From an uncultured Gemmatimonadales bacterium (GTDB lineage: Bacteria; Gemmatimonadota; Gemmatimonadetes; Gemmatimonadales; GWC2-71-9): 64,000 nucleotides of DNA. Below the pieces are notes generated by a model, which was given only the letters and a program-made list of their open reading frames with translations, had not been told where the DNA came from and searched no databases. Below are positions 11,665-48,367 of the stretch, piece by piece. Positions within the stretch are counted from its first letter, which is position 1. The number at the start of each line of letters is the position of its first letter. The stretch covers positions 86,092 to 150,091 of the forward strand of contig CAWCVB010000010.1 in assembly GCA_963798915.1 (NCBI GenBank), given 5' to 3'. The position numbers and the translations under genes are program-made.

Positions 11665-14316
11665 TCAGGTAGTGAGTTCCGTTCGGGCGTGTGATGCACT
11701 CACCGGCGCGCGCCTTCCGCGCACCATTCCCTCCGCTGCCACGCCAGAGCGAAGAGCATCAGCGGCCGTGGCCTGCACCTGCGCCGCGGTCACTTCCCGG
11801 AAATGCGACCCGGGATCATCCAGTTCCGCCAGCCCGTCGCCAATCATCCATGCCTCAAGGATCTCGCCCGCCACGGCGCCAGCACTCTGGCGGCGTACCC
11901 GCGTCTGCCCGTCGAGGTAGCGGATGGCACGCTGAAGCTCGTCCGCCTCCACCGGCTCAGTGGCAAATCGATCAAGTTCCTCGAGCATGGCGACCCTGGC
12001 CTCGTCCTCCCGCTCGGGAGAGGTGGCGATGTAGGTGACCAGTGCCCCGGCGCGTCCACGCTGCCAGGTGCTGAGCAGGACGGTGTAGGCCAGCGACCGC
12101 TTGTCCCGCAAGGCCTCAAAGAGACGGCCGCCGAGCCCACTCGCTATCGCGGCCAGCACGGTGGCAGCGTGTCGAGCCCTGTCCCGGCGCGCCGGCCCCG
12201 GGAACAGCATTGCAAACGCCGTCTGGGCGCGGTCGCGCTCGACGATGCGCTGGCCTCGAGTCTCAAGTAGCACGCCCGCATCGCCGCCGGCGCCAGCGTC
12301 CCGTGCCGGCAAGTCGGCGAAGACGGCGCTAAGTCGGTCGGCCAGCAGGCTTTCATCGCCATCCCCCACCGCGACGATTACCGGCCGGGACTGGCTGCGT
12401 GCATTCGCGAGCCATCGCCCGGCGTCGGCTGCCTCGAAGGTAGTCAGGGTCTCGACGGTGCCATGCAGCGGAAGACCGTAACCGGCATCGCCGAATCCGG
12501 CCCGAAACGCCAACTCGAACGGATAGGTGAACATGTCGTCAGTGGACTGCCGTACCTCCTCGATCAGCAGGTCGCGCTCCCGGCGGACCGCTTCCTCATC
12601 GAAGCGTGGCGCTTCCAGCACCAGCCTGAGGAGTTCGGCGCTGCCCTGCGCATGGCGACCCAGCACACCGGCGCCGAAGCCAAACCAGTCCGACGCGACC
12701 ACGGGTGACACCGACCCGCCCTGTGACTCAAAGGCATAGGCAAGCTGGCGCGCGTCCAGCAAACCGGCGCCGCGAACTGCCGAACGGACGGCGAGCGCAC
12801 CCAGGCCGGCCTCGCGCGGCGCATCGAACCGGGTCCGCGGATAGTAGAGACCCAGCGACACCAGTGGTACGCCCGGCTTCCGCCGCACCAGCAGGTCCGC
12901 CCCCTTCAGCGCGACGTGAAGCACACCATGCTCACGCTCGCGCGGCGCCGCCGGAGCGGCTGCGTGCAATGGGGGAGCCCAGCGCGGTACCAGCGTCGAC
13001 GGAATGCCGCTCCCGCGGAACGCCTGCGCCAGGCGATCGGTCGTCAGGTCCTCGCCATCCTCGGTCGGCAGGTAGACCACACCCGCCACTGCGCCGGGAT
13101 CGAGATAGCGCTCCGCCACGGCCCGGACTTCATCCACCGTGACCTGCTCGAGCCGCTGGTAGTCGCGGTCGAGCAGCGCCGTGTCTCCCAGGGCTTCGAC
13201 CGACGCCAGCGCCATGGCGTGGCCTTCCATCCCTTCCAGCCGGCGGGCCCACTGGTACTGCAGCAGTGCGCGCGCCCGATCAAGGTCCTCACTGGTCGGC
13301 CCGGTGCTGGCCAGGCGGCGCACCGCTCCACCGATGCCGTCGAGCGCCTGGCCCACCCGAGCCGGAGGCAAGTCGGCGCCGATCGAGAAGATCCCGATTT
13401 CTGTGGGTGAGTAGTGGTAGGCGCCGACCCCCATGGCAGCACCAGTTTCGCGCAGCTGCTGGTACAGCCAGGCACCGCGGCCGGATGCCAGCACCGCCGC
13501 CGCGAGATCGAGGGGCACATTGTCGTCGTGGAGTGCGGGGACACCACGCCAGCCCAGAACCAGCTCCGCCTGCGCCACGTCGCCGCGCAGGGTTCTCACT
13601 CGCAGCTCGTGATGGGGCGGCTCCTCGGGCGATTGGTCAATGGCACCCGGTGCTGCCACCCAATCGCCGTAGCAATCCATCGCCAGGGACAGCGCGCCCT
13701 CGACCTCGATGTCACCCACGATGGAGACGATCACCCGGCTCGGCACATATCGAGAACGGTAGTAGCCGACGACGTCGCTTCTGGTGTACCCGCGCAACTG
13801 CTCCTCGGTCCCGATCCGCCACCGGCGAATGCGGTGGCGGTCGAACATCACGCCGTTCAATGTTTCGGCCGCCACGGCCGACGGCGAGTCCAGTTTTCGC
13901 TTGGCTTCCTCAATGATGACCTGCAACTCACGGCGCAACTCGTCGGCATCGATTGCCGAGTTGCGGAGGGCGTCGCTCTGGATGGCTAATGCGCGGGCCA
14001 GACCCTCGGGCGGGAGTACGACGTAATAGGCGGTATGGTCGTAGGCCGTGTGGGCGTTGACGTAACCGCCCAGCGCCTTGGTCTCTCGCGCCACCACTCC
14101 GGGCCCGCGCGTCGCTGTTCCCTTGAAGAACATGTGCTCGAGGACATGCGAAATGCCGACCTGGTCGTCCGGCTCATCGAAGAAACCGGCGTTCACATGC
14201 GTGACCACCGCGACCGCGGGGGCCGAGGCGTCGCGCAGCGCCAGGATGGTCAAGCCATTGGGGAGAACAGTGCGCCGGAGACCGGCGGTCCAGCGAGGAG
14301 AGGGAGCGGTGGTCAT
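11665..14316 (-). CDS. M16 (pitrilysin-family) zinc protease
   Basis: GISHVLEHMFFKGT (HxxEH), SRLF-like GGRLFEALRDKRSLAY; 883 aa. Confidence 0.92.
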   Translation of the reverse strand: MTTAPSPRWTAGLRRTVLPNGLTILALRDASAPAVAVVTHVNAGFFDEPDDQVGISHVLEHMFFKGTATRGPGVVARETKALGGYVNAHTAYDHTAYYVVLPPEGLARALAIQSDALRNSAIDADELRRELQVIIEEAKRKLDSPSAVAAETLNGVMFDRHRIRRWRIGTEEQLRGYTRSDVVGYYRSRYVPSRVIVSIVGDIEVEGALSLAMDCYGDWVAAPGAIDQSPEEPPHHELRVRTLRGDVAQAELVLGWRGVPALHDDNVPLDLAAAVLASGRGAWLYQQLRETGAAMGVGAYHYSPTEIGIFSIGADLPPARVGQALDGIGGAVRRLASTGPTSEDLDRARALLQYQWARRLEGMEGHAMALASVEALGDTALLDRDYQRLEQVTVDEVRAVAERYLDPGAVAGVVYLPTEDGEDLTTDRLAQAFRGSGIPSTLVPRWAPPLHAAAPAAPREREHGVLHVALKGADLLVRRKPGVPLVSLGLYYPRTRFDAPREAGLGALAVRSAVRGAGLLDARQLAYAFESQGGSVSPVVASDWFGFGAGVLGRHAQGSAELLRLVLEAPRFDEEAVRRERDLLIEEVRQSTDDMFTYPFELAFRAGFGDAGYGLPLHGTVETLTTFEAADAGRWLANARSQSRPVIVAVGDGDESLLADRLSAVFADLPARDAGAGGDAGVLLETRGQRIVERDRAQTAFAMLFPGPARRDRARHAATVLAAIASGLGGRLFEALRDKRSLAYTVLLSTWQRGRAGALVTYIATSPEREDEARVAMLEELDRFATEPVEADELQRAIRYLDGQTRVRRQSAGAVAGEILEAWMIGDGLAELDDPGSHFREVTAAQVQATAADALRSGVAAEGMVRGRRAPVSASHARTELTT

Positions 14317-33874: not shown

Positions 33875-33951
33875 TTCAGCCTTCAGCTTTCAGCCTTCAG
33901 CCTTCAGCTTTCACCCTTCAGCTTTCAGCCTTCAGCTCTCGGCCCTCAGCT
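33875..33951. repeat. Heptamer array (TTCAGCY)x11
   Basis: Counted 11 units; unit 6 and the last two are degenerate. Confidence 0.92.
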
Positions 33952-33963
33952 CTTCGCTGAAGC

Positions 33964-36921
33964 CTATTCCAGCGCCGCTACCTCCACCCTGATCCGATCC
34001 ACATCGGCTCGCAATGAAGGTTCGGGAGTGGCGCGGAGCGCCAGGTAATGGCCGTACGCCTGCCGCGCCTCCGCCTTATTGCCCGTGAGCTTGGCGAGCC
34101 GGCCCTCCTCGCGGAAGAGCGTAGACAGGGCCACCTGAATCCGCTGCGCCCCCGCATCCGCCACCGGCGCGCGGCGCCGGACGGCAGCGAGGGCCTTGTC
34201 GTATTCGCCGCGCCTGGAATAAAGATCCGCCAGTGTCAGATTGCCGAGCGTCACCGCCCATGAATTCCTGAAAGGATCCAGTACACTGGGCGAGTCCAGC
34301 TCGGCGATGAGCCGAGCGGCTTCCGGGCTCCGCCGCGCAACGGCCAGTCGGGCCGGCAGAACCAGCAGGCATACGTCGCCCAGTTCTTCACGTTGCGGCC
34401 CTGTCGTCAGGCGCAGCCGCGCGATGAGCGGTGGAAGCTGATCCCACTGGTTGCGCCCTGCCCGCCAGAGGCCCACCGCACAGATCGCGAGTTGCTCCGC
34501 CAGATCGGGCGGCGTGCGTGCGTCATCCAGATTTTCAATACGCGCGGTGAGGCGAGCTACGGTTTCTGCCGCCAAGGTGGTGTCGCCATCCCAGAACAGT
34601 GCGGCGAAGACCTGACTGAAATCGTGATAGAGTCCGGTGGCTTCCGCACCGGCGGCCATGCGCGCCACGCCGGCAGCTTCCAGTGGACGGCCACGATTGA
34701 GGGCGAGTTCTTCCCGGCGCTGGTAGGCCCGGACGAGATCGCCGGCAACCCCGGCCCGCCGCTGGAGCTCCGTGGTGGCATCCACCGCGTCCTCAATCCG
34801 GATCCCTTCCAACTGCGCGGCGGAGAGCAGGCGGTTGAGCGTCGCATCGGTCTGATCCGGAATTCTGGCATGGAACGCGGCCAGCTGGAGCGAGTCGCCG
34901 AGGGACGCCGCAATCAGCCAGCGATAGAACTCGGCAAGGTCACCATCAGTGTCCAGCGCCCGATACCGCGCGCCCAGCCGCCGCACAATTGCGGTGTCGC
35001 CAAGGCTGGCCTCGATGTCCAGCAGGTGGCCCAGCGCCGGCACATACGTCGAGTCTATCTCAAGCGCCTTGCGGTAGGACGCCGCTGCCCGGTCCCGCAC
35101 CCCAGGCAGGCCGGCCCACGACTGCTGGTTCAGTACCCAGCCCAGCTGGAACCAGATGTCCGGGCGGTCAGGCGCGCGCGCTGCCACCGCATCGCAGATT
35201 TCGTAGTCGGAGATGGAATCTGGCACCGGCGTCGCTGCCAGGCGTCGGTCGAGACATGCCCCGAACTGCCGATCCAACGGAGGCAGGGTTGCCGCGCGTG
35301 ATAGGAGCCAATCCGAAATCCGACTTCCCGCGGGGTCCTTCACCATCTCGCTCCCCATGATCAAGCCGACAGCCGCGAGCGTTAGCGAGGAGTCCTGGCT
35401 GAGTGCTTCCTTGTAATGCGCCAGCGCGACGCTGAACCTCCCGCTGGCAAAATCCTGCTCGCCCGCAATGAATGCGCGCGCCGCGGGGAGTGACGCATGC
35501 TGGATCATGGACAATCGCTCGTCAGGCTGACCGGCGAGCACTGCCATCAAGCCGGCTGCAACCCGGTCCGCGAGCGCCAGCAGACTGTCCCGGCTTCCGC
35601 TCACATTTGAAATTCGCGCCAGAACCCTTCCGTCGCTGGCGGCCTCGATCGTCGCCGTCACCGCCAACTGCTGGCCCGAGGTAAGCACCTGCCCGCGCAG
35701 CAGGCGCGGACTGCCGAGCGCACGGGCGAGGGTGCTCATGTCACGAGCCCCCAGGGTGGCTGGAGTGAGTTTCAATCGGTTGAGCGCGGCCCTCACTGCC
35801 GAGGGATCCATCGCCCGCGGCCCACCCAGGCCGGTGAAGCGGTCCGCCAGGAGATTCGACAGCGCCGACCCGGCTGAACTGGCGGCGGAATCGTCAGGGT
35901 CCGCCGCGGCGAGTGGAAGGATGGCGACGCGATTCATGTCAAGCGGGAGCCCGCGCGACCGGCGGGCCAGGACCTGCCACCCGATGAGCGTGCCAACCAC
36001 CAGCAGCACCAGCGCTGCCACCCACGGCCAGCGCTTGCGAGACGCAGGCAGTGCCGGGGCCATGAGCGAGGAACGGCTCCAGGCCTGGAATGACTCGCCT
36101 CGAAGCACGCGGGCAAGTTCGCCTGCGTCGGGAAACCGGTCGGCAGGATTCTTGGCCAGTGCCCGGTGCACCGCAGCCTCGATGATTTCCGGCACCGAGT
36201 CGCGGACGGCACGGATACTGGGCACCCGCTCGACGGCATGACGCGCGAAGACCTGTTGCACCGACGCGCCGGTGAACGGTGGCTCGCCCACCAGCATCTC
36301 GTAGATGACACATGCGAGACTGTACTGATCGGAGCGCCCATCCAAACGGGTCGAGCTTCCGATCTGCTCGGGGCTCATGTACATCGGCGTACCGACCACG
36401 AGTCCGGACGACGTCAGCACTGCCTGGTCCTGCTCCAGCGCGTGCGCCAGACCGAAATCCGCCACCAGCGCGTGGGCGCCGCTCAACAGAATGTTGCCGG
36501 GCTTGATGTCCCGGTGCACCACACCCTGATGGCCGGCGTACTCCAGTGCGTCGGCGACTTCCGCGCCAATCCGGAGCGCATCCTCGATGGCTAGCTGTCC
36601 TTCGCGCCTGATCCGGACCGCCAGCGATTCTCCCTCGACGACCGGCATGACATAGTACAACAGGCCATCCGCGTCACCGCTGTCATGCAGTGGCAGGATG
36701 TTGGGATGATTCAGCCGGGCGGCCACCCGGATTTCGCGCAGAAATCGTTCGTGACCCAGCGAGGCGGCCAGATCGGGTGAGAGAGCCTTGATGGCGACTT
36801 CGCGCCCATGACGCTCATCCCACGCCCGATACACGACCGCCATGCCGCCGCGTCCCAGCTCCCCCCTGACCGTATACCGACCGGCCAGGGCGGCGCCGAG
36901 CCGCGCTTCGAGTTCACTCAT
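33964..36921 (-). CDS. Membrane-anchored Hanks-type Ser/Thr kinase with TPR-like C-terminal region
   Basis: LGRGGMAVVY, VAIK, HRDIKPGN, DFG, GTPMYMSPEQ; TM WPWVAALVLLVVGTLIGW; helical repeats; ATG 36921 overlaps the upstream stop. Confidence 0.9.
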   Translation of the reverse strand: MSELEARLGAALAGRYTVRGELGRGGMAVVYRAWDERHGREVAIKALSPDLAASLGHERFLREIRVAARLNHPNILPLHDSGDADGLLYYVMPVVEGESLAVRIRREGQLAIEDALRIGAEVADALEYAGHQGVVHRDIKPGNILLSGAHALVADFGLAHALEQDQAVLTSSGLVVGTPMYMSPEQIGSSTRLDGRSDQYSLACVIYEMLVGEPPFTGASVQQVFARHAVERVPSIRAVRDSVPEIIEAAVHRALAKNPADRFPDAGELARVLRGESFQAWSRSSLMAPALPASRKRWPWVAALVLLVVGTLIGWQVLARRSRGLPLDMNRVAILPLAAADPDDSAASSAGSALSNLLADRFTGLGGPRAMDPSAVRAALNRLKLTPATLGARDMSTLARALGSPRLLRGQVLTSGQQLAVTATIEAASDGRVLARISNVSGSRDSLLALADRVAAGLMAVLAGQPDERLSMIQHASLPAARAFIAGEQDFASGRFSVALAHYKEALSQDSSLTLAAVGLIMGSEMVKDPAGSRISDWLLSRAATLPPLDRQFGACLDRRLAATPVPDSISDYEICDAVAARAPDRPDIWFQLGWVLNQQSWAGLPGVRDRAAASYRKALEIDSTYVPALGHLLDIEASLGDTAIVRRLGARYRALDTDGDLAEFYRWLIAASLGDSLQLAAFHARIPDQTDATLNRLLSAAQLEGIRIEDAVDATTELQRRAGVAGDLVRAYQRREELALNRGRPLEAAGVARMAAGAEATGLYHDFSQVFAALFWDGDTTLAAETVARLTARIENLDDARTPPDLAEQLAICAVGLWRAGRNQWDQLPPLIARLRLTTGPQREELGDVCLLVLPARLAVARRSPEAARLIAELDSPSVLDPFRNSWAVTLGNLTLADLYSRRGEYDKALAAVRRRAPVADAGAQRIQVALSTLFREEGRLAKLTGNKAEARQAYGHYLALRATPEPSLRADVDRIRVEVAALE

Positions 36922-39280
36922 GCGACTGATCTGCCACGATGGGCCAACCCTCGGATTCGAAGAACGGATGGCATGCGCGGCCCGGCCTCTCCAGATCCTG
37001 CTCCAGCAGAGCAACCCCCAACCTTCCCTTGTACAGCGACAAGTGCCCTGCCGCACTCCGCGCAAACGGCTTGGCATCGCGCTCCAACAGCAGGCGAGCG
37101 CGGTCCAGCCAGCGGGCATCGCCGGTCATCCGGTGAAGCGCGAGCAGGGCATAGCTGCGGCCTGCCAGTCCGCAGCACAAGTCGGGAAACCGGTCCGGTG
37201 CTTCCCATGCGCTCCACCCGCACCGTTCGGCCAGAACCGCATATCGGTCATTCCGAGTCAACTGAAAGGCAATATTCCAGAGATGTACCAGCCCGGCCGG
37301 CCCGTTGCACCACCCCGGAAGATCATGATGACTGCCAGTTCCGGGCACGTGGGGGAACTGGATGCCGCGGCCCCGAGGTTCCGCCAACCGTCCCAGCGTT
37401 GCCAGCGCCCGCGCGATGGCCTGAGAGGGTGCCTGCCGCGCAACCCGACACCAGCGGAGCATCGCGTAGAGCACTCCTCCCCAGCCATGGGCAATGCCGG
37501 CGTTGTCCAACGGGCCGCCCGCTGGAAAGGACACGAATTCCGCCAGCGTCGCACCCAGCCGGCGCATCAGCTCCTCTCCCAGGGCGCGCAGCAGCACGCG
37601 CGATGGAGCAAGCTCGGCCGGAGCCGCCTCCAGCAGCATCACAGCGCCCAACAGCACGCCCGCAATGCCATGGCCCAGTTCAACCCGCGTCTCGGCGGCA
37701 ATATCCAGTGCGCAGAAGCGCTTGATTGCAGCAGCCATCCGTGTGAGCTGGCCAGATGCCTGGGCGAGGTGCGCGTCCACCAGAATCAGGCCAGAACCAG
37801 TAAAATATGGCGTCACGCTGCCGGTGACATCCGCTTCCAGTCCTTGACGGGGACTCAGGAATGCGCCGGAGCCACGGCTTGCCTGCTTTGCGGTTTCGCA
37901 CCAGCCGGCCGCCGCCGAGAGCAGTTCCGGCTCGTTGCGCAGGACAGCCAACCGGTACAACCCGAACGCCGTACCGGCCATGCCATGCATCAGCGAGCAG
38001 CGCGGCGCCCCGATCATGCGAGCCCACTCCGGTGGAGAGCGCCGAGCCAATGTGCGCAGCCACGCGTCTGCCCGACTTTGGGACTGGATACGCACCGGCG
38101 TGCCAACCGGCGGAACTGTGCAACTCGCCAACGCATCGGCGAAGTGGCGCACCGAGCGAAATCGATCCGAGGCCTTCTGTGCCAGGGCCCGGCCGAGCAC
38201 CGCCTCGAGCCCGGGCCACGGTGCAGCACCGTGGGCGGCGAATGGCAGTGGCCGCGCTCTGGCCAGCGCCTGAAGCATCACCTCGCGGTCCTGGGAGTCT
38301 CCCACATGCGGGGTGCCTGCGGCCATGTGGTACAGGAGCGCTGCAAGCGCAGATTGCTCGCCCACGGCGGAGAGCGGCGGTGGGGAAGAGCCAGCCAGCA
38401 TGGCTTCGGCAAACTGGGGATCGGAGTACGGCAGCACCACGCCGCGATCCACCGGCCGTCGTCCCGGCGTCTTGCTGCACCCGAAATCGAGAATCGTAAT
38501 CCGGCCCTGAGCGCTCACCAGAAGGTTTCCGGCGTGCACATCCCCGTGCAACACGCCCCTCGCGTGGAGGCGCGCATAGGCGCGCGCGATGGAGACCAGC
38601 AGGTGGAACAGCGGCGCGCGACCTGCATGACCGGCGCTTCGAAGCTCGCGCGCCCGTACCAATGGAGAGACTCCGCTGCGCCAGCCCATCACCAGAAATG
38701 GGCGGCCTTCGAGAGTGCCGGCAGACCTGAGTGCGGGAGCGCCACGGCCGCCCAGCAGTTCCAGCACATGCTGTTCCTGACGCAGGGCCCGACGCAGCCG
38801 GCGCTCGGAGCCGAGGCGGGCGATCTTCATTGCCACGACCCGCCCGCGGGAATCCCGTGCCTGATAGAGTTCGGAGTCTTCGAGCACCATCACATGGCGG
38901 ACCACCACAAATCCGGCAATCCTCTCGCCCTTGTCCAGCGATGGCATGATACGGGAGGCATCGGGCGATCCCGCAGGCACCAGGAAGCGAGCCTCATAGC
39001 AATCGCGGAGCAGCGGGAATGAATCGGTCAGCGCCTGTTGCGGATCGCCATTGCTGCTGTGGGCGATGATCGCATCCGCGATGCGGGTAGGCGTCTGGAA
39101 GTGGCGAAGCAGTTCGGCAGCGTCCCGGCTGACCACTCTCGAAGACGCCCGGACCCGCGCCCGACCCAGCGCAAATCCGCCCTCCACGCGAGGCAGGCGC
39201 CGGCGCAGCCCGTCGGGAAGTTCGGCCAGCGGCGTCAGCAGGACGTCCCCGGGCAGGATCAGTGCGTCAGTGATCGCCAT
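36914..39280 (-). CDS. Lanthionine-synthetase-like fusion: putative RRE-like N-domain + Ser/Thr kinase + LanC-type zinc cyclase
   Basis: Kinase VAMK, HGDVHAGN, DFG; LanC GxxG repeats LMHGMAG, LGHGIAG, GIAHGWGG, GWCNGPAG, DLCCGLAG, LYKGRLG. Confidence 0.85.
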   Translation of the reverse strand: MAITDALILPGDVLLTPLAELPDGLRRRLPRVEGGFALGRARVRASSRVVSRDAAELLRHFQTPTRIADAIIAHSSNGDPQQALTDSFPLLRDCYEARFLVPAGSPDASRIMPSLDKGERIAGFVVVRHVMVLEDSELYQARDSRGRVVAMKIARLGSERRLRRALRQEQHVLELLGGRGAPALRSAGTLEGRPFLVMGWRSGVSPLVRARELRSAGHAGRAPLFHLLVSIARAYARLHARGVLHGDVHAGNLLVSAQGRITILDFGCSKTPGRRPVDRGVVLPYSDPQFAEAMLAGSSPPPLSAVGEQSALAALLYHMAAGTPHVGDSQDREVMLQALARARPLPFAAHGAAPWPGLEAVLGRALAQKASDRFRSVRHFADALASCTVPPVGTPVRIQSQSRADAWLRTLARRSPPEWARMIGAPRCSLMHGMAGTAFGLYRLAVLRNEPELLSAAAGWCETAKQASRGSGAFLSPRQGLEADVTGSVTPYFTGSGLILVDAHLAQASGQLTRMAAAIKRFCALDIAAETRVELGHGIAGVLLGAVMLLEAAPAELAPSRVLLRALGEELMRRLGATLAEFVSFPAGGPLDNAGIAHGWGGVLYAMLRWCRVARQAPSQAIARALATLGRLAEPRGRGIQFPHVPGTGSHHDLPGWCNGPAGLVHLWNIAFQLTRNDRYAVLAERCGWSAWEAPDRFPDLCCGLAGRSYALLALHRMTGDARWLDRARLLLERDAKPFARSAAGHLSLYKGRLGVALLEQDLERPGRACHPFFESEGWPIVADQSHE

Positions 39281-40373
39281 GCTGTCCCATCCCGCCGGCG
39301 GTGCCGACCACGACCGGGCTCCAGCTTTCAACATCGACAGCATCCAGCGACACGCGATCCATCGCGAATCGCCACGCCGGGACGATGCAGCCGCGGTCTC
39401 GAGCGGCCTGCGCGAGCGCACTCGCGAGGCGCTGGGTGAGCCAGGCGCGCCAGCTCTCGTCGCCAGCCCAGGGCGCTGCGCGGCCGCGGCCTGCCGGATC
39501 CACACCCCACGATATCAGCGCCGAGTCAAACAACTGTCCGGTGAACGGGACTCCCTGTGCTGCCACGCCGGCCAGATCACGGGAGAGTCTGCGGGCAGCC
39601 TGCAGCATGCCGCGCCGCGAACTGAAGTAGAGCACCAGTTTATCCGGCCGCAGAATGTTGTAGAGATCCCGTCCCACCTTCATCGAGATTGCACCGGCCA
39701 CACGCGCAGCTGCGTGCAGCGACGGTCGCACCAGCTCAGGCATCGGACTCAGGTACAGCTTCCAGATCCTGCGGCCCGGACGAGGCAGCGGTGTACGGTC
39801 CCATGAGAGCCATGCGCCACCGGCTTCAGGGTCCGACGCCTGAAGCCGTGACCCGTGCGGCATGTCGCGCAGCAGTTCGCGCCCCAGCGCTTCCGCGTCG
39901 GGATACCGCTCCCGCCAGGCCGGCGTGGCCGGCAGCGTGTTGAACGCGTAGAGCAGCCGTGCCGATGCTGACACGTCCGGCAACTCGAACGCGGCGGTCT
40001 GCCGCAACGCGTCCAGCGAAAGCGTGGCCAGCGCCGAGGAGGGAGCGGGTCCGTCAGCGTTGGGGAAAAAGATCCGGTGTGCCGCGCCTCCGCTCACGTA
40101 ACGCCGGCCCGCACGGATTTCGAGGACTCCATCCAGCACCAGCGCCTGAAGTGAGTGAATCGGAATCGAAGGGGGCGCCAGTCGTGGGTGCGCCAACTCG
40201 ACAAAGAGCCGGGCGGTCGAGCGGTTCACCACCCGCGGCGCCCGGAAGTCTCCTGCCTCGGGAGTGAGCAGCCCACCGAACGCAGCGTGTGCCGCCTGGC
40301 GCACCAGCCACGCCGGCATCGGCTCGGGCAAGGCCTCCGGCGCCAACAGGCGGTAACCTGGCGCGGCCCGCAT
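39267..40373 (-). CDS. HopA1-like (LanY/TvaD-type) phospho-Ser/Thr lyase candidate
   Basis: WKLYLSP, MKV, RPDKLVLYF, GVPFT, SWGVDP, ESWR pattern; overlaps the kinase-LanC gene. Confidence 0.65.
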   Translation of the reverse strand: MRAAPGYRLLAPEALPEPMPAWLVRQAAHAAFGGLLTPEAGDFRAPRVVNRSTARLFVELAHPRLAPPSIPIHSLQALVLDGVLEIRAGRRYVSGGAAHRIFFPNADGPAPSSALATLSLDALRQTAAFELPDVSASARLLYAFNTLPATPAWRERYPDAEALGRELLRDMPHGSRLQASDPEAGGAWLSWDRTPLPRPGRRIWKLYLSPMPELVRPSLHAAARVAGAISMKVGRDLYNILRPDKLVLYFSSRRGMLQAARRLSRDLAGVAAQGVPFTGQLFDSALISWGVDPAGRGRAAPWAGDESWRAWLTQRLASALAQAARDRGCIVPAWRFAMDRVSLDAVDVESWSPVVVGTAGGMGQHGDH

Positions 40374-40419
40374 TTTGGCTGAGTGACAGAATGATTTGGA
40401 CACAGCGATGAACGCGGCA

Positions 40420-40457
40420 CCACCCATCCGGCGCACCGGCGTGCGCCGGATGGGTGG
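40420..40457 (-). terminator. 17-bp perfect stem-loop between precursor and modification genes
   Basis: CCACCCATCCGGCGCAC-cggc-GTGCGCCGGATGGGTGG. Confidence 0.7.
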
Positions 40458-40475
40458 CTGAGCGTCGAGTGGTGG

Positions 40476-40688
40476 TCAGGCCAACGCGGCGTCGAGCTGG
40501 AGCCGCAGGTCCTTGAGACTTTCCGCGGCCAGGCCCTTGGGTTTGGGCTTCGCGGTGGTGTTGGTGCACGCGCCGCACTTGGTGGGCAGCTCGCAGTTAT
40601 CCGCGCCGGCTCCGTTCGCCCAGGCCAGTTCGCCATTTTCCATTGCCTGCACTGGCATCATTATGTCCCTGCTCTCGAACCTGCTCAT
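40476..40688 (-). CDS. Putative RiPP precursor peptide (70 aa)
   Basis: GGAGG 6 nt before ATG; central CELPTKCGACTNTT; first gene of the lyase/kinase-LanC operon. Confidence 0.8.
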   Translation of the reverse strand: MSRFESRDIMMPVQAMENGELAWANGAGADNCELPTKCGACTNTTAKPKPKGLAAESLKDLRLQLDAALA

Positions 40689-40872
40689 GGTCAGCCTCCG
40701 ATCGCGTAATACTGCCCGGGCCCGCCGAGATGGCTGGTCCGTTCAAGGTCCGTTCTATTGAGAAAGGTGTGCCCCTTGGATATACCGGGCGACTTGAACG
40801 CCGTCAATGCCACCCTTGCCCGCCGGCCAATCCGGCGGTAAGTCACCTGCCGCCAAGCCAAGGGAGCCTGAC

Positions 40873-42153
40873 GTGGCCGACACCGCCTTCGAGGTCCATA
40901 GCATCGCCTTTGCCTATCCCGGCAATCGCGAGGCAATCCCGCTGCGCGCTCCGGCAACCAATCACCTGGTCAGCGAACACCCCGAATGGATCCGGAACGA
41001 GCGCTCGGCTCCCGTGGCATATGTGCGGGGCGCCCGGCCTCACGTTCAGGTGGTTTTCCGGCGCCAGGCGGGGCCAAGGAGGATCACCTGCGTGGTCGGT
41101 GCCACGGCGCGAGGCGCCACCGCAGGGGTGCAGGCCCGCCGTGTCCGGCTGGAGTTTGACCGAAGCGGCCTGTCACGGCCGGTGCGATTCCAGCTCTCGC
41201 GCACTTTGCCGAAGGTGGTCGGGATCCGACGGATCCGCTGGGCCTGGTTCCGGCTGGTAGAGGGGAAGCGCCTTCCCGCCGGCGGCTCAGCACATGAGAT
41301 CTGCCTTGCGTGGAGGCGGCCACGACCGCCAGCCGACTGGGCCGGCCCCGATTCGTTTCCCCGCAGCCAACCGTGGGTCTATGTGCCACTCATGCAGTGG
41401 ACCTGCGCCTGGGCCGCGGGACGGAATGATCCCAAGGCCATCTGCGACACCATCCTGCGCAAGCTCCCGGCTTCCGGCCTGCGCTACGCTCGGCCAGCAT
41501 GGGACGTTCGGACCATGCTCACGGCGGGGGGCGGGTACTGTGGTGGCTGGTATCGCATGTTCCAGGCAATGGCCGGAGCCCAGGGTGTGGAGGTCAAGCG
41601 CCGTGCCTTCATGGTCCACTGGCAGAATGAGAGCCGGCAGCGGGCCCGATGGTGCGCCATCGTCGTGCAGCACGCAGGGATCAACCGCGACGCGGTGGTG
41701 GAGGCGCCAAGCACCTTCCATGACGTCCGCCAGCGGCCGGTGCGCGGCGCACCGGTGCGCGTCACCACGCGGGCGCGGTACCGCTTCTGGGGTGCGCCAG
41801 GCAAGGTGAACGACGGCCACTGCCTCAATTTCCTTCGGTACAAGGGCGCCTGGCACCTGTATGATGCCTGTTTCCTCTCGGAGTCGGTCCGCCTGCCCGG
41901 CTTCTCCTTGCCTCGCTCCAATTCGACCCGTGCCGTGCCGGTCGGCCGGCTCGGTGCCTTTCGGACGCGATACCTGGATCGGGCCGTGAATTACATGCTG
42001 GGGTCATTCCGGAATGATGGGAAGCTCTATCGCACCATCCACCCCGACCCGGCCACGAAGCAGTTCGGCAAGGCGACGGTCACCAATGGATTGAGTATTC
42101 GGACGACGCTCGTGCCCGACCCGGGACAACTCATCTCCTTCTACTGGATCTGA
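40873..42153 (+). CDS. Hypothetical protein with transglutaminase-like Cys-His-Asp triad
   Basis: AGGGAG before GTG 40873; GGYCGGW, DGHCLNF, HLYDAC in transglutaminase order. Confidence 0.6.
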   Translation: MADTAFEVHSIAFAYPGNREAIPLRAPATNHLVSEHPEWIRNERSAPVAYVRGARPHVQVVFRRQAGPRRITCVVGATARGATAGVQARRVRLEFDRSGLSRPVRFQLSRTLPKVVGIRRIRWAWFRLVEGKRLPAGGSAHEICLAWRRPRPPADWAGPDSFPRSQPWVYVPLMQWTCAWAAGRNDPKAICDTILRKLPASGLRYARPAWDVRTMLTAGGGYCGGWYRMFQAMAGAQGVEVKRRAFMVHWQNESRQRARWCAIVVQHAGINRDAVVEAPSTFHDVRQRPVRGAPVRVTTRARYRFWGAPGKVNDGHCLNFLRYKGAWHLYDACFLSESVRLPGFSLPRSNSTRAVPVGRLGAFRTRYLDRAVNYMLGSFRNDGKLYRTIHPDPATKQFGKATVTNGLSIRTTLVPDPGQLISFYWI

Positions 42154-42155
42154 CC

Positions 42156-42515
42156 ATGCCGCTAGCCCATCAGCACCTGCGACGCTGCCTGGCAGGCGGC
42201 CTGATCCAAGGCCGGCGCGCGACCTGGCAGCACGCGCTGGCGTTGTTGCACGCCGTCGCCGACGATCATTCCACCGAGTCCGAGAGCGTCCTGCGCGAGG
42301 TCGCGCTCTACGACGGCGTGCTCCAACTCGATACTACCGCCGGGCTGCCCCACGCCATGTCGCCGGAGGATGCAATGCGTTCCCTGGCGATCCAGGTGCT
42401 CGCGCAGTGGGACCGTAAGCGCCATGGCGACGTGATCCGGGCGGTGGGACGGAACGCGCGCAATGACGTGGTGGCAGCGATTGCGGGGGACAGGCGAAGC
42501 TGGGCTGAAGGCTGA
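42156..42515 (+). CDS. Hypothetical helical protein (119 aa)
   Basis: ATG 2 nt after the upstream stop; stop codon supplied by the heptamer array. Confidence 0.6.
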   Translation: MPLAHQHLRRCLAGGLIQGRRATWQHALALLHAVADDHSTESESVLREVALYDGVLQLDTTAGLPHAMSPEDAMRSLAIQVLAQWDRKRHGDVIRAVGRNARNDVVAAIAGDRRSWAEG

Positions 42516-42579
42516 AGGCTGAAGGCTGAAGGCTGAAGGCTGAAGGCTGAAGGCTGAAGGCTGAAGGCTGAAGGCTGAA
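42503..42579. repeat. Perfect heptamer array (GGCTGAA)x11
   Basis: Counted directly. Confidence 0.96.
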
Positions 42580-42636
42580 GGCGGCGCGAAGATACTCTGC
42601 GTTCAGCGCATCGCGCATTGCGCTTGGCGCAAAGCC

Positions 42637-42665: not shown

Positions 42666-42678
42666 GCACTCCATACGA

Positions 42679-42729
42679 TTCCGTGGCGATTTGCGCAGCT
42701 TGCGGCCACGTTAAACAATCTGCTAAAAC
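42679..42729 (+). ncRNA. SAM-II riboswitch
   Basis: TTCCGTGGCGATTTG...GCTTGCGGCCACGTTAAACAATCTGCTAAAA fits the SAM-II pattern (P1 CGTGGC/GCCACG, GATTT, TTGC, TAAA, GCTAAA); upstream of metH. Confidence 0.85.
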
Positions 42730-42780
42730 GCGTCCGCTCGGACCGTTTTGGCTCCGGGCGTTTGTCTTGTGGAGTCTCGA

Positions 42781-48301: not shown

Positions 48302-48367
48302 GCACGAAAGCACGAAAGCACGAAAGGGTGACACGCCTTTTCAGCTTTTAGCGTTCAGCCTTCAGCC
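48302..48367. repeat. (GCACGAAA)x3 followed by TTCAGC-type heptamers
   Basis: Read directly; related CACGAA units also at about 8702-8765. Confidence 0.7.

Follow-up and report, generated by a model that had tools for sequence, protein, structure and literature searches.

A probable lanthipeptide-type RiPP cassette with a stand-alone lyase and a kinase-LanC fusion in an uncultured Gemmatimonadales bacterium

Lanthipeptides, which belong to the peptides made by ribosomes and modified after translation (RiPPs), are divided into classes according to the arrangement of kinase, lyase, and cyclase in their synthetases. In class IV enzymes (LanL, e.g., VenL and CuvL), lyase domain, Hanks-type kinase, and Zn-LanC cyclase follow each other in one chain. 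Class III (LanKC) and class VI (LanKCb) synthetases also hold kinase and LanC-like domain in one polypeptide; excerpts of the literature describe a class III cyclase without Zn ligands together with an N-terminal lyase domain (PMC9486802), and a class VI with truncated lyase and cyclase domains, known only from streptococci (PMC10676316). For class V, extracts of two accounts give a separate kinase of the APH family and characterized pathways without a LanC-type cyclase (PMC10604976, PMC11186320), and LanK-LanY heterodimers are reported for CaoK-CaoY and LxmK-LxmY in passages of PMC9486802 and PMC12141560. We analyzed a window of 64,000 nucleotides from an uncultured Gemmatimonadales bacterium (GenBank assembly GCA_963798915.1, contig CAWCVB010000010.1, positions 86,092 to 150,091 of the forward strand; all positions below are those of the window), which holds a gene cassette built around a stand-alone lyase-like protein and a kinase-LanC fusion. 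From its genes and predicted structures, we consider it probable that this is a lanthipeptide-type RiPP cassette with a two-protein synthetase.

Four genes occupy the minus strand from 33964 to 40688, encoding a 70-aa peptide (40476..40688), the lyase-like protein (39267..40373), the kinase-LanC fusion, and a large Hanks kinase. The open reading frame (ORF) of the fusion spans 36914-39505; as its homologues share the N-terminus M-x-I-T-D-P-x-V-L-P, the start was placed at the conserved position 39280 (M-A-I-T-D), resulting in a protein of 788 aa. An earlier note, made from the letters of this stretch, had described the row as peptide, hairpin, lyase-like protein, kinase-LanC fusion, and Hanks kinase with the last three genes overlapping. 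All these ORFs are present, the lyase stop overlapping the kinase-LanC start by 14 nt and the kinase-LanC stop overlapping the start of the Hanks kinase by 8 nt. Folds, catalytic and Zn-binding residues, gene coupling, and the existence of a precursor family could be established by computation. Relatives of the lyase were detected in 214 species genomes by a scan using one genome per species, and the loci inspected (given as L numbers where they need to be told apart) are the best 80 of these 214 stretches, a selection biased toward close relatives of the query.

The 368-aa lyase-like protein, counted from the ATG used in the earlier note, has no match in Pfam, NCBIfam, or PADLOC, and its 152 relatives from a word-indexed search are all unnamed or “hypothetical”, none of them carrying a precomputed Pfam domain. 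Among 39 aligned family members, eight weakly matched PF17914 HopA1 (best E 7.6e-4) and four weakly matched PF25816 RamC_N, a model of the N-terminal domain in RamC (a class III synthetase), a region that we take to be RamC’s lyase domain. The AlphaFold2 model calculated from the family alignment (mean predicted local distance difference test, pLDDT, 89.2; predicted template modeling score, pTM, 0.89) yielded 12 Foldseek matches in the PDB at E <= 0.001, and the entries listed to rank 29 are, without exception, lanthipeptide synthetases or phosphothreonine lyases (LxmKY, HopA1, CuvL, SpvC, OspF, VirA, ThurKC, SalKC, and PneKC). The best of them (E 1.1e-6) is chain B, presumably LxmY, of the LxmKY lexapeptide dehydratase complex. 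Also found are two structures of the effector HopA1, 4rsx and 4rsw, and the class IV synthetase CuvL with an aligned stretch of 145-152 columns, assumed here to be its lyase domain. The template modeling scores (TM-scores) are moderate (0.37-0.42 on the query), since approximately 190-277 columns align. In terms of its modeled fold, the protein is a phosphoSer/phosphoThr lyase of the HopA1/LanY/OspF type; the HopA1-like lyase postulated earlier is thereby supported by AlphaFold2 and Foldseek, with a Pfam match of its own being absent.

Five residues of this protein, K205, K232, R242, D244, and Y249, are invariant in the lyase family. Members of the OspF/HopA1 superfamily use a catalytic Lys as base, Arg/Lys residues that bind the phosphate, and a Tyr of the active site. 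K232, R242, and Y249 are spaced by 10 and 7 residues, as are CaoY K219, R229, and Y236, which are presented as the counterparts of SpvC Lys136, Arg148, and Tyr158 and are mutated or discussed in the excerpts of PMC9486802. K205, located 27 residues upstream of K232, appears from its position to correspond to CaoY Arg187 and SpvC Lys104.

The second protein, the kinase-LanC fusion, combines a Hanks-type Ser/Thr kinase domain (38006..38911, minus strand, approximately residues 124-425) with a LanC cyclase domain (36914..37999, minus strand, approximately residues 428-788 and the stop codon). In Pfam, LANC_like was matched with an E-value of 7.3e-21 over profile positions 5-347 of 350, accompanied by Pkinase (36.4 bits) and APH (42.2 bits). 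The best NCBIfam model was LanL (NF038150), covering model positions 191-798 of 851 with 132.6 bits compared with a cutoff of 650, while the class III model NF038151 gave 73.8 bits compared with a cutoff of 575. Across 46 aligned family sequences, the kinase residues K152, E169, H245, D247, N252, and D265 are invariant, and 90% or more of the sequences retain the LanC residues H598 (AHG), C658 (WCNG), and C702-C703 (LCCG); thus, an active kinase and a Cys-Cys-Cys Zn site are predicted. Whereas the third Zn ligand of canonical LanC enzymes is a His, the Zn site of the fusion reads C / CC. NCBI labels the lyase “hypothetical protein” and has no more specific name for the fusion than “lanthionine synthetase LanC family protein”.

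Structural comparison of the whole fusion (AlphaFold2 model, pLDDT 88.0) placed CuvL first (8cav_A, E 5.6e-22, 744 columns, 20% identity), followed by class III synthetases, human LanCL1/2, and PknB. The class III enzymes ThurKC, SalKC, and PneKC were matched with E-values of 1e-15 to 1e-11, and LanCL1/2 reached TM-scores, normalized by target length, of 0.69-0.72. The ranking by sequence profile against the PDB is led by LanCL2 (3.5e-34), StkP, LANCL1 (8.6e-32), and PknB, with StkP and PknB ranging from 1e-33 to 1e-30. A lyase domain is not contained in the fusion, as the LanL match starts only at model position 191 and the N-terminal pieces of the family gave no RamC_N match. The earlier statement that a Hanks-like kinase and a Zn-LanC share one chain is hence confirmed by Pfam domains and conserved residues, and no lyase domain was found in that chain.

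Residues 1-123 of the fusion (38912..39280, minus strand) lie outside all kinase, LanC, and LanL matches. Homologous N-terminal pieces weakly matched PF22767 ThcOx in 10 of 45 cases (best 5.7e-4) and PqqD in 2 of 45. The predicted structure shows strands at residues 13-17, 36-40, and 48-50, which are then followed by helices at 52-62, 67-74, and 80-96; three strands succeeded by three helices is the order of a RiPP recognition element (RRE), a winged-helix domain to which leader peptides bind. According to the part of PMC8795117 consulted, the cyanobactin oxidase ThcOx carries RRE copies, PF22767 being a domain of ThcOx. Profile matches and predicted topology make this domain a good lead as a candidate RRE. 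The earlier description of enzymes and peptide named the parts properly, while this additional N-terminal domain, as well as the C-terminal helix of the precursor described below, had escaped it.

Lyase and fusion are firmly coupled. A kinase-LanC homologue follows directly 3' of the lyase gene in all 80 loci, and 42 of the 78 lyase/kinase-LanC junctions measured are overlaps, 35 are gaps of 0-30 nt, and one is a gap of 70 nt. Apparent lyase-kinase read-through fusions in L026, L030, and L046 were discarded as artefacts of tblastn running across a stop codon. Judged by the sequence titles, the loci belong to Acidobacteriota (61), Gemmatimonadota (8), Chloroflexota (3), Pseudomonadota (3, including Amaricoccus macauensis DSM 101730), Actinomycetota (2), Bacillus isolates (2), and WPS-2 (1), covering six phyla plus the candidate division WPS-2 and deriving mostly from uncultured soil Acidobacteriota and Gemmatimonadota. 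The neighborhood survey for co-occurring lyase and kinase-LanC that the earlier note had proposed thus returned the pair at every locus, with a precursor upstream in most, and the conserved core consists of precursor, lyase, and kinase-LanC only. As to the “island” that had been treated as a single unit, this core trio is conserved; the island is not singular, given the relatives in 214 species genomes, and the further genes at its two ends are specific to one clade.

Compared with the described classes, the layout is a hybrid of IV and V to which an RRE-like domain is added, and it departs in defining features from each of the classes III, IV, V, and VI. With class IV it shares a Hanks-type kinase followed by a Zn-LanC in one chain, and the same chemistry of phosphorylation, beta-elimination, and thiol addition is expected; both the kinase residues and the Zn-LanC are in place. 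Unlike LanL, the lyase is a separate protein, the RRE-like domain of 123 aa takes the place of the in-chain lyase domain, the score stays below the NF038150 cutoff, and the precursors are conserved at both the N- and the C-terminus. With class V LanK-LanY (LxmKY, CaoKY) and the thioamitide proteins TvaC-TvaD it has in common a stand-alone lyase of the HopA1 fold, clear by fold and weak by sequence, with the kinase encoded adjacently; in contrast to class V, this kinase is Hanks-like rather than an APH kinase working without LanC, and it is fused to a Zn-LanC. The single-chain combination of kinase and LanC-like domain recalls classes III and VI. It differs from the former by the presence of Zn ligands and the absence of a lyase domain, and from the latter, as far as the excerpted review description sets it apart, by a full-length LanC and no lyase remnant. 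A further likeness concerns LanM enzymes of the ProcM type, whose hypervariable cores stand beside conserved recognition sequences and whose three-Cys “CCG” Zn site we take to resemble the L-C-C-G motif found here; LanM enzymes possess a lipid-kinase-like dehydratase domain and no separate lyase. These comparisons agree with the earlier claim that the locus fits none of classes I-V.

Searches of open-access and bioRxiv full text, with subscription journals outside their coverage, returned no description of a HopA1-like lyase paired with a kinase-LanC fusion. Kinase-LanC proteins without a lyase domain may be mentioned in a 2012 PNAS paper on how lanthipeptide synthetases evolved. As far as checked, novelty apparently extends to architecture, likely RRE, family of precursors, and association with receptor kinases, whereas the chemistry is expected to be that of known systems.

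A simpler explanation would be a plain class IV cluster in which the synthetase gene has been split between lyase and kinase, so that mechanistically nothing is new. The gene order of lyase, kinase, and LanC is the domain order of LanL, and the fusion is closest to CuvL by structure and to LanL among the NCBIfam models. According to excerpts of a genome mining study, any protein with LANC_like and Pkinase is filed as class III or IV (10.1101/2020.03.13.990614), a rule by which such clusters would be assigned accordingly. Moreover, “lanthipeptide class IV” regions are reported from Acidobacteriota in extracts of PMC11354219 and PMC13642348, and these reports may include the family described here. 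However, the LanL score of the fusion lies far below its cutoff, the lyase is closer in structure to LxmKY and HopA1 than to the CuvL lyase domain, PF17914 was matched by 8 compared with 4 for RamC_N among the 39 relatives, and an RRE-like domain occupies the position of the LanL lyase. The two genes are separate at 78 of 78 junctions, and longer fused forms of the lyase were not found in the relatives search, which is weak evidence, while the layout of the precursors is unlike that of class IV leaders. Taken as a whole, we regard a split LanL gene as an unlikely explanation.

The peptide that precedes the lyase gene of the window carries the motif MSRFESRDIMMPV at its N-terminus, 3 Cys and 4 Thr in its core, and an amphipathic C-terminal helix motif, L-K-D-L-R-L-Q-L-D-A-A-L-A. 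Orthologues were found by tblastn in L001, L002, L003, and L018, and the alignment with L001, L003, L018, and L020 reveals conservation of both ends and of two Cys around a variable middle. On family level, the N-terminal consensus M-x-F-K-V-K-D-L-M-I-N-V-L-P is succeeded by a hypervariable, Cys/Ser/Thr-rich, and often repetitive middle and by the C-terminal consensus L-x-x-L-K-x-Q-L-x-x-A-L-x-E-V-E, to which many relatives add a long charged-heptad tail. The Leu-rich C-terminal helix with its conserved Gln is reminiscent of the amphipathic helix in class III and IV leaders, as described in extracts of PMC12328550 and PMC10604976. A regular-expression search upstream of the lyase gene identified precursor-type ORFs in 55 of the 80 loci and in the window, the set consisting of 56 peptides after removal of the doubtful L017, L027, L070, and L076. 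They comprise 55-280 aa (median 141.5) with 0-32 Cys (median 8) and 5-62 Ser plus Thr (median 18), and at least two Cys are present in 54 of the 56. None of 42 precursors searched against Pfam and NCBIfam reached a cutoff. The low-GC Bacillus locus L014 presents a clean row of precursor, lyase, and kinase-LanC genes.

Profile hidden Markov models (HMMs) of the N- and C-terminal motifs were built from these peptides and run on all six frames of 1.19 Mb. Same-strand matches upstream of the lyase gene were obtained with the N-motif for 58 of 81 sources (two matches elsewhere) and with the C-motif for 50 of 81 (one match elsewhere), and both motifs fell within one frame segment in 41 of 81. The informative part of this result is the near absence of matches elsewhere, and those few represent second precursor genes in L036 and L044. 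The conservation of the peptide beside homologues of the enzymes, on which the earlier note had made its reading depend, holds by tblastn orthologues, motif HMMs, and alignment alike. What is expected of a RiPP precursor is found here: a small ORF adjacent to the enzyme genes, conserved parts for recognition, and a hypervariable core in which the residues to be modified are abundant.

The small upstream ORFs could nonetheless be regulatory leader peptides or structural coiled coils, with the substrate of the enzymes encoded elsewhere. Their length, which is considerable in many cases (up to 280 aa), the coiled-coil-like tails, and the few members with no or a single Cys would suit such a role. 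It is at odds with the Cys content of the set, with the concentration of variation in a core between two conserved motifs, and with their placement in most loci, closely upstream and in the orientation of the enzyme genes, throughout six phyla and WPS-2; we consider this possibility very improbable. Side observations on the precursors concern their repetitive cores (L006, L063, L064, L067, L026, L030, and L046), in which units such as C-Y-A-S-G-G-G, C-T-P-S-P-P, and C-A-S-H-P recur, a pattern that suggests core expansion by tandem duplication.

The enzymes might also be seen in another light, namely as a protein modification or repair module wired to Hanks signaling, in which kinase and lyase generate dehydroamino acids and LanC adds a small thiol as LanCL1/2 do, and which is no RiPP system. 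LanCL proteins work as stand-alone enzymes, adding glutathione to dehydroamino acids, and among solved proteins LanCL2 and LanCL1 come closest to the LanC domain by sequence profile; a conserved exporter or protease is not part of the module, and Hanks kinases abut it in 30 of the 80 loci. Unlike LanCL, the domain is fused to a kinase and stands beside a Cys-rich substrate. Most loci have, directly upstream, a hypervariable Cys/Ser/Thr-rich ORF with conserved flanks, the hallmark of a dedicated substrate that contains its own nucleophiles, and the RRE-like domain points to peptide substrates. A repair function therefore appears quite unlikely to us.

Several observations weigh against the interpretation as a lanthipeptide-type cassette and need to be set beside the evidence in its favor. 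Clustering of the neighboring ORFs did not reveal any exporter or protease recurrent across the loci. The lyase is itself silent in Pfam and all matches of its relatives are weak (none better than the HopA1 value given above), its family profile found nothing at E <= 1 among the PDB chain sequences, and the catalytic roles proposed for K205, K232, R242, and Y249 are read from spacing and invariance. LanL and LanKC are not among the best 60 PDB profile matches of the fusion, the nearest being LanCL2/LanCL1, and the RRE assignment is drawn from weak matches and the order of secondary structure elements only. Concerning the precursors, a few candidates have no or one Cys, and the motif HMMs are silent in 16 of the 81 sources, some of which offer too little upstream DNA or have visibly divergent precursors. 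The upstream HMM counts are also partly circular, because the HMMs derive from peptides picked by regular expression at the same loci.

For the lanthipeptide-type cassette that we favor, the following course of events can be proposed. The RRE-like domain would dock the N-terminal motif of the precursor, and the kinase would phosphorylate Thr and Ser of the hypervariable core. The lyase, probably bound to the kinase as in LanK-LanY heterodimers, would remove the phosphate to give dehydrobutyrine and dehydroalanine, to which the LanC domain would add core Cys, forming (methyl)lanthionine rings, possibly up to three in the window peptide with its 3 Cys and 4 Thr. The C-terminal helix of the precursor might, as a speculation, serve as a second recognition or docking element or in oligomerization. 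In a more far-reaching version, which is possible and put forward only tentatively, the locus would represent a new lanthipeptide class, with a LanY-like lyase in trans and an RRE-kinase-LanC(Cys3) protein acting on precursors of 55-280 aa that are recognized at both ends, by a strand motif at the N-terminus and by the amphipathic C-terminal helix, in many cases prolonged into a coiled coil. As its products, Acidobacteriota and Gemmatimonadota would make “lanthi-proteins” with multiple bridges, wired to adjacent membrane receptor Hanks kinases (TPR/PD40) and functioning as signals or structural elements rather than as exported antibiotics.

The products of such loci are unexplored, because the mining rules would miss a separate lyase and because the pipeline discards long ORFs; in the extracts of that mining study, candidate precursor ORFs of more than 120 aa were dropped (10.1101/2020.03.13.990614). 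The unusually long and Cys-rich precursors, containing up to 32 Cys, offer a test case for the action of one synthetase on large repetitive cores. Among the cultured carriers are Amaricoccus macauensis DSM 101730 and two Bacillus isolates, and the three-gene core is small enough for heterologous reconstitution.

Beyond this core, the gene downstream of the fusion encodes a membrane Hanks Ser/Thr kinase (33964..36921, minus strand). Its ORF extends over 33964-37119; since the homologues of L001 and L003 align from residue 1, the start is likely at 36921, which results in 985 aa. The protein shows a Pkinase domain (E 3.5e-47), one transmembrane-like segment at approximately residues 300-319, and a C-terminal region of about 660 aa with weak TPR matches. 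L001, L002 (cut by the contig end), L003, L018, L020, and L076 have full-length orthologues in the position directly downstream. A quick IQ-TREE reconstruction with 46 kinase-LanC proteins, L002 not being among them, unites the window and L001, L003, L018, L076, and L020 in one clade (Shimodaira-Hasegawa-like approximate likelihood ratio test 92). By sequence, the TPR Hanks kinase is an accessory specific to this clade and probably serves as a sensor or regulator; within the proposed mechanism it would be a candidate for either role.

Hanks kinases encoded outside the module are present in 30 of the 80 loci. Upstream, 26 of 29 Hanks matches lie at a distance of 2-4 kb, which corresponds to a kinase domain at the N-terminus of a gene whose end immediately precedes the precursor, and downstream 9 of 17 lie within 1 kb; altogether 39 of 46 share the strand of the module. 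Many of the loci are related, and these counts are consequently dependent events. Among 22 upstream ORFs, picked in knowledge of their tblastn kinase matches, 15 contain Pkinase and/or PD40 beta-propeller repeats. The sensor domain varies by clade, TPR here and PD40 in Acidobacteriota, while the adjacency of a kinase persists. A same-strand ORF starting within 700 bp downstream of the module occurs in 27 of the 80 loci, and 22 of these 27 ORFs, when scanned, had no common family except for three Trans_reg_C regulators. Two Acidobacteriota loci, L036 (11602-13281, 15116-15460) and L044 (11592-13382, 15114-15374), one of them labeled Thermoanaerobaculia, carry two more Hanks kinases after kinase-LanC and then a second precursor gene, an order by which receptor-type kinases are embedded in the cluster.

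On the other side of the peptide gene, a divergent pair on the plus strand encodes a transglutaminase-like Cys-His-Asp protein of 448 aa (40807..42153) and, 2 nt downstream, a small partner of 119 aa (42156..42515) without an assigned family. Both had been pointed out in the earlier note and are present, the triad being invariant and the likeness to Transglut_core weak. The search for the larger protein returned 381 representatives at E <= 1e-3, and C245, H338, and D353 are invariant in an alignment of 5 as well as of 44 sequences. Four of 44 relatives matched Transglut_core (PF01841) weakly and below the cutoff (best 1.1e-4); the window protein itself gave an E-value of 0.13, Atlas named Transglut_core as its lead (0.79), and the family profile had no meaningful match in the PDB. 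For the small partner, neither Pfam, NCBIfam, and PADLOC nor the PqqD and RRE profiles gave a match, and Atlas returned nothing usable. The larger protein is syntenic in L001, L003, L018, and L020, the partner in L001, L003, and L018; a fifth tblastn match of the larger protein, in L067 (E 1e-3), was discounted, as it lies inside the kinase-LanC gene of that locus.

Pairs of this kind recall B1/B2 of lasso peptide clusters, i.e., an RRE protein and a transglutaminase-like leader peptidase, in that a Cys-His-Asp protein and a small partner adjoin a RiPP precursor. Unlike the lasso pair, the partner has no PqqD or RRE match, the 448-aa protein is far larger, and its Transglut_core match stays below the cutoff. 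Based on its sequence features, the transglutaminase-like protein is a candidate for a peptidase or a cross-linking enzyme with the precursor as its substrate, and together with its partner it may be considered for precursor trimming. The surrounding yggU-metH context is common to L001, L003, and the window and absent in L018 and L020, so the linkage of the accessory genes is kept across genomic contexts. Transglutaminase-like pair and TPR kinase are accessories of one Gemmatimonadota clade.

Between precursor and enzyme genes, an RNA hairpin (40411..40466, minus strand) is formed by a perfect 18-bp core stem (40419-40458) with an outer stem reaching to 40411-40466, and no T-tract follows. Its free energy of -54.4 kcal/mol corresponds to z = -7.0, and none of 200 shuffles was as stable. 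Perfect inverted repeats of 11-14 nt are found at the same position in L001, L003, and L018, and none in L020. The hairpin is a candidate attenuator or mRNA-processing or stabilizing stem, which would probably set the ratio of precursor to enzyme message. A scan for promoters and terminators was uninformative, with no promoter-like site and one terminator-like site, located inside the kinase-LanC gene, compared with 5.4 expected.

The genomic surroundings are of housekeeping character, in line with the earlier placement of the block between yggU and metH: one flank consists of YggT, DUF167/YggU (E 6.4e-27), and a fatty-acid desaturase, the other of a five-domain MetH. Pfam and NCBIfam scans within and adjoining the island detected no LanB, LanM, LanD, YcaO, or dedicated exporter, which agrees with the absence of LanD, YcaO, and exporter noted before. 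The reading as a defense system was dropped, PADLOC giving generic kinase-domain matches only (PD-T4-6, mad6, PglW) and none for the lyase, the transglutaminase-like protein, or the small partner. An M16-family peptidase gene of 883 aa is located at 11668-14316 on the minus strand, approximately 20 kb from the island, and is recorded here as the island itself is without a protease.

The island is bracketed by inverted tandem arrays of 7 nt, TTCAGCC in 11.4 copies at 33875-33955 (79% matches) and GGCTGAA in 11.4 copies at 42503-42582 (100%). A 21-mer of the heptamer unit, allowing up to two mismatches, occurs within the 64-kb window in both arrays and once more at 48347, and in none of the 80 relative loci. 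Their interpretation as marks of a mobile element was rejected, considering that L001 and L003 hold the island in the same yggU-metH context and that these two have other arrays of 7-8 nt in their intergenic regions; such arrays look like a habit of these genomes rather than a mobile-element mark. With regard to mobility of the cassette elsewhere, an IS1595-family transposase gene lies directly downstream of the kinase-LanC gene in the Acidobacteriaceae locus L013 (11833-12807), and in the kinase-LanC tree the two Bacillus copies fall into a clade of four with two Acidobacteriota copies, within which L014 groups with the Acidobacteriota pair ahead of L052. The transposase neighbor and the Bacillus placement are hints of horizontal transfer of the cassette. 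Finally, directly 5' of metH, a SAM_alpha riboswitch (RF00521) was identified at 42673-42743 on the plus strand with 51.6 bits compared with a gathering threshold of 36 (E 1.8e-9); SAM_alpha is recorded in Rfam as the S-adenosylmethionine riboswitch aptamer of Alpha-proteobacteria, and the closest relatives of the window are Gemmatimonadales.

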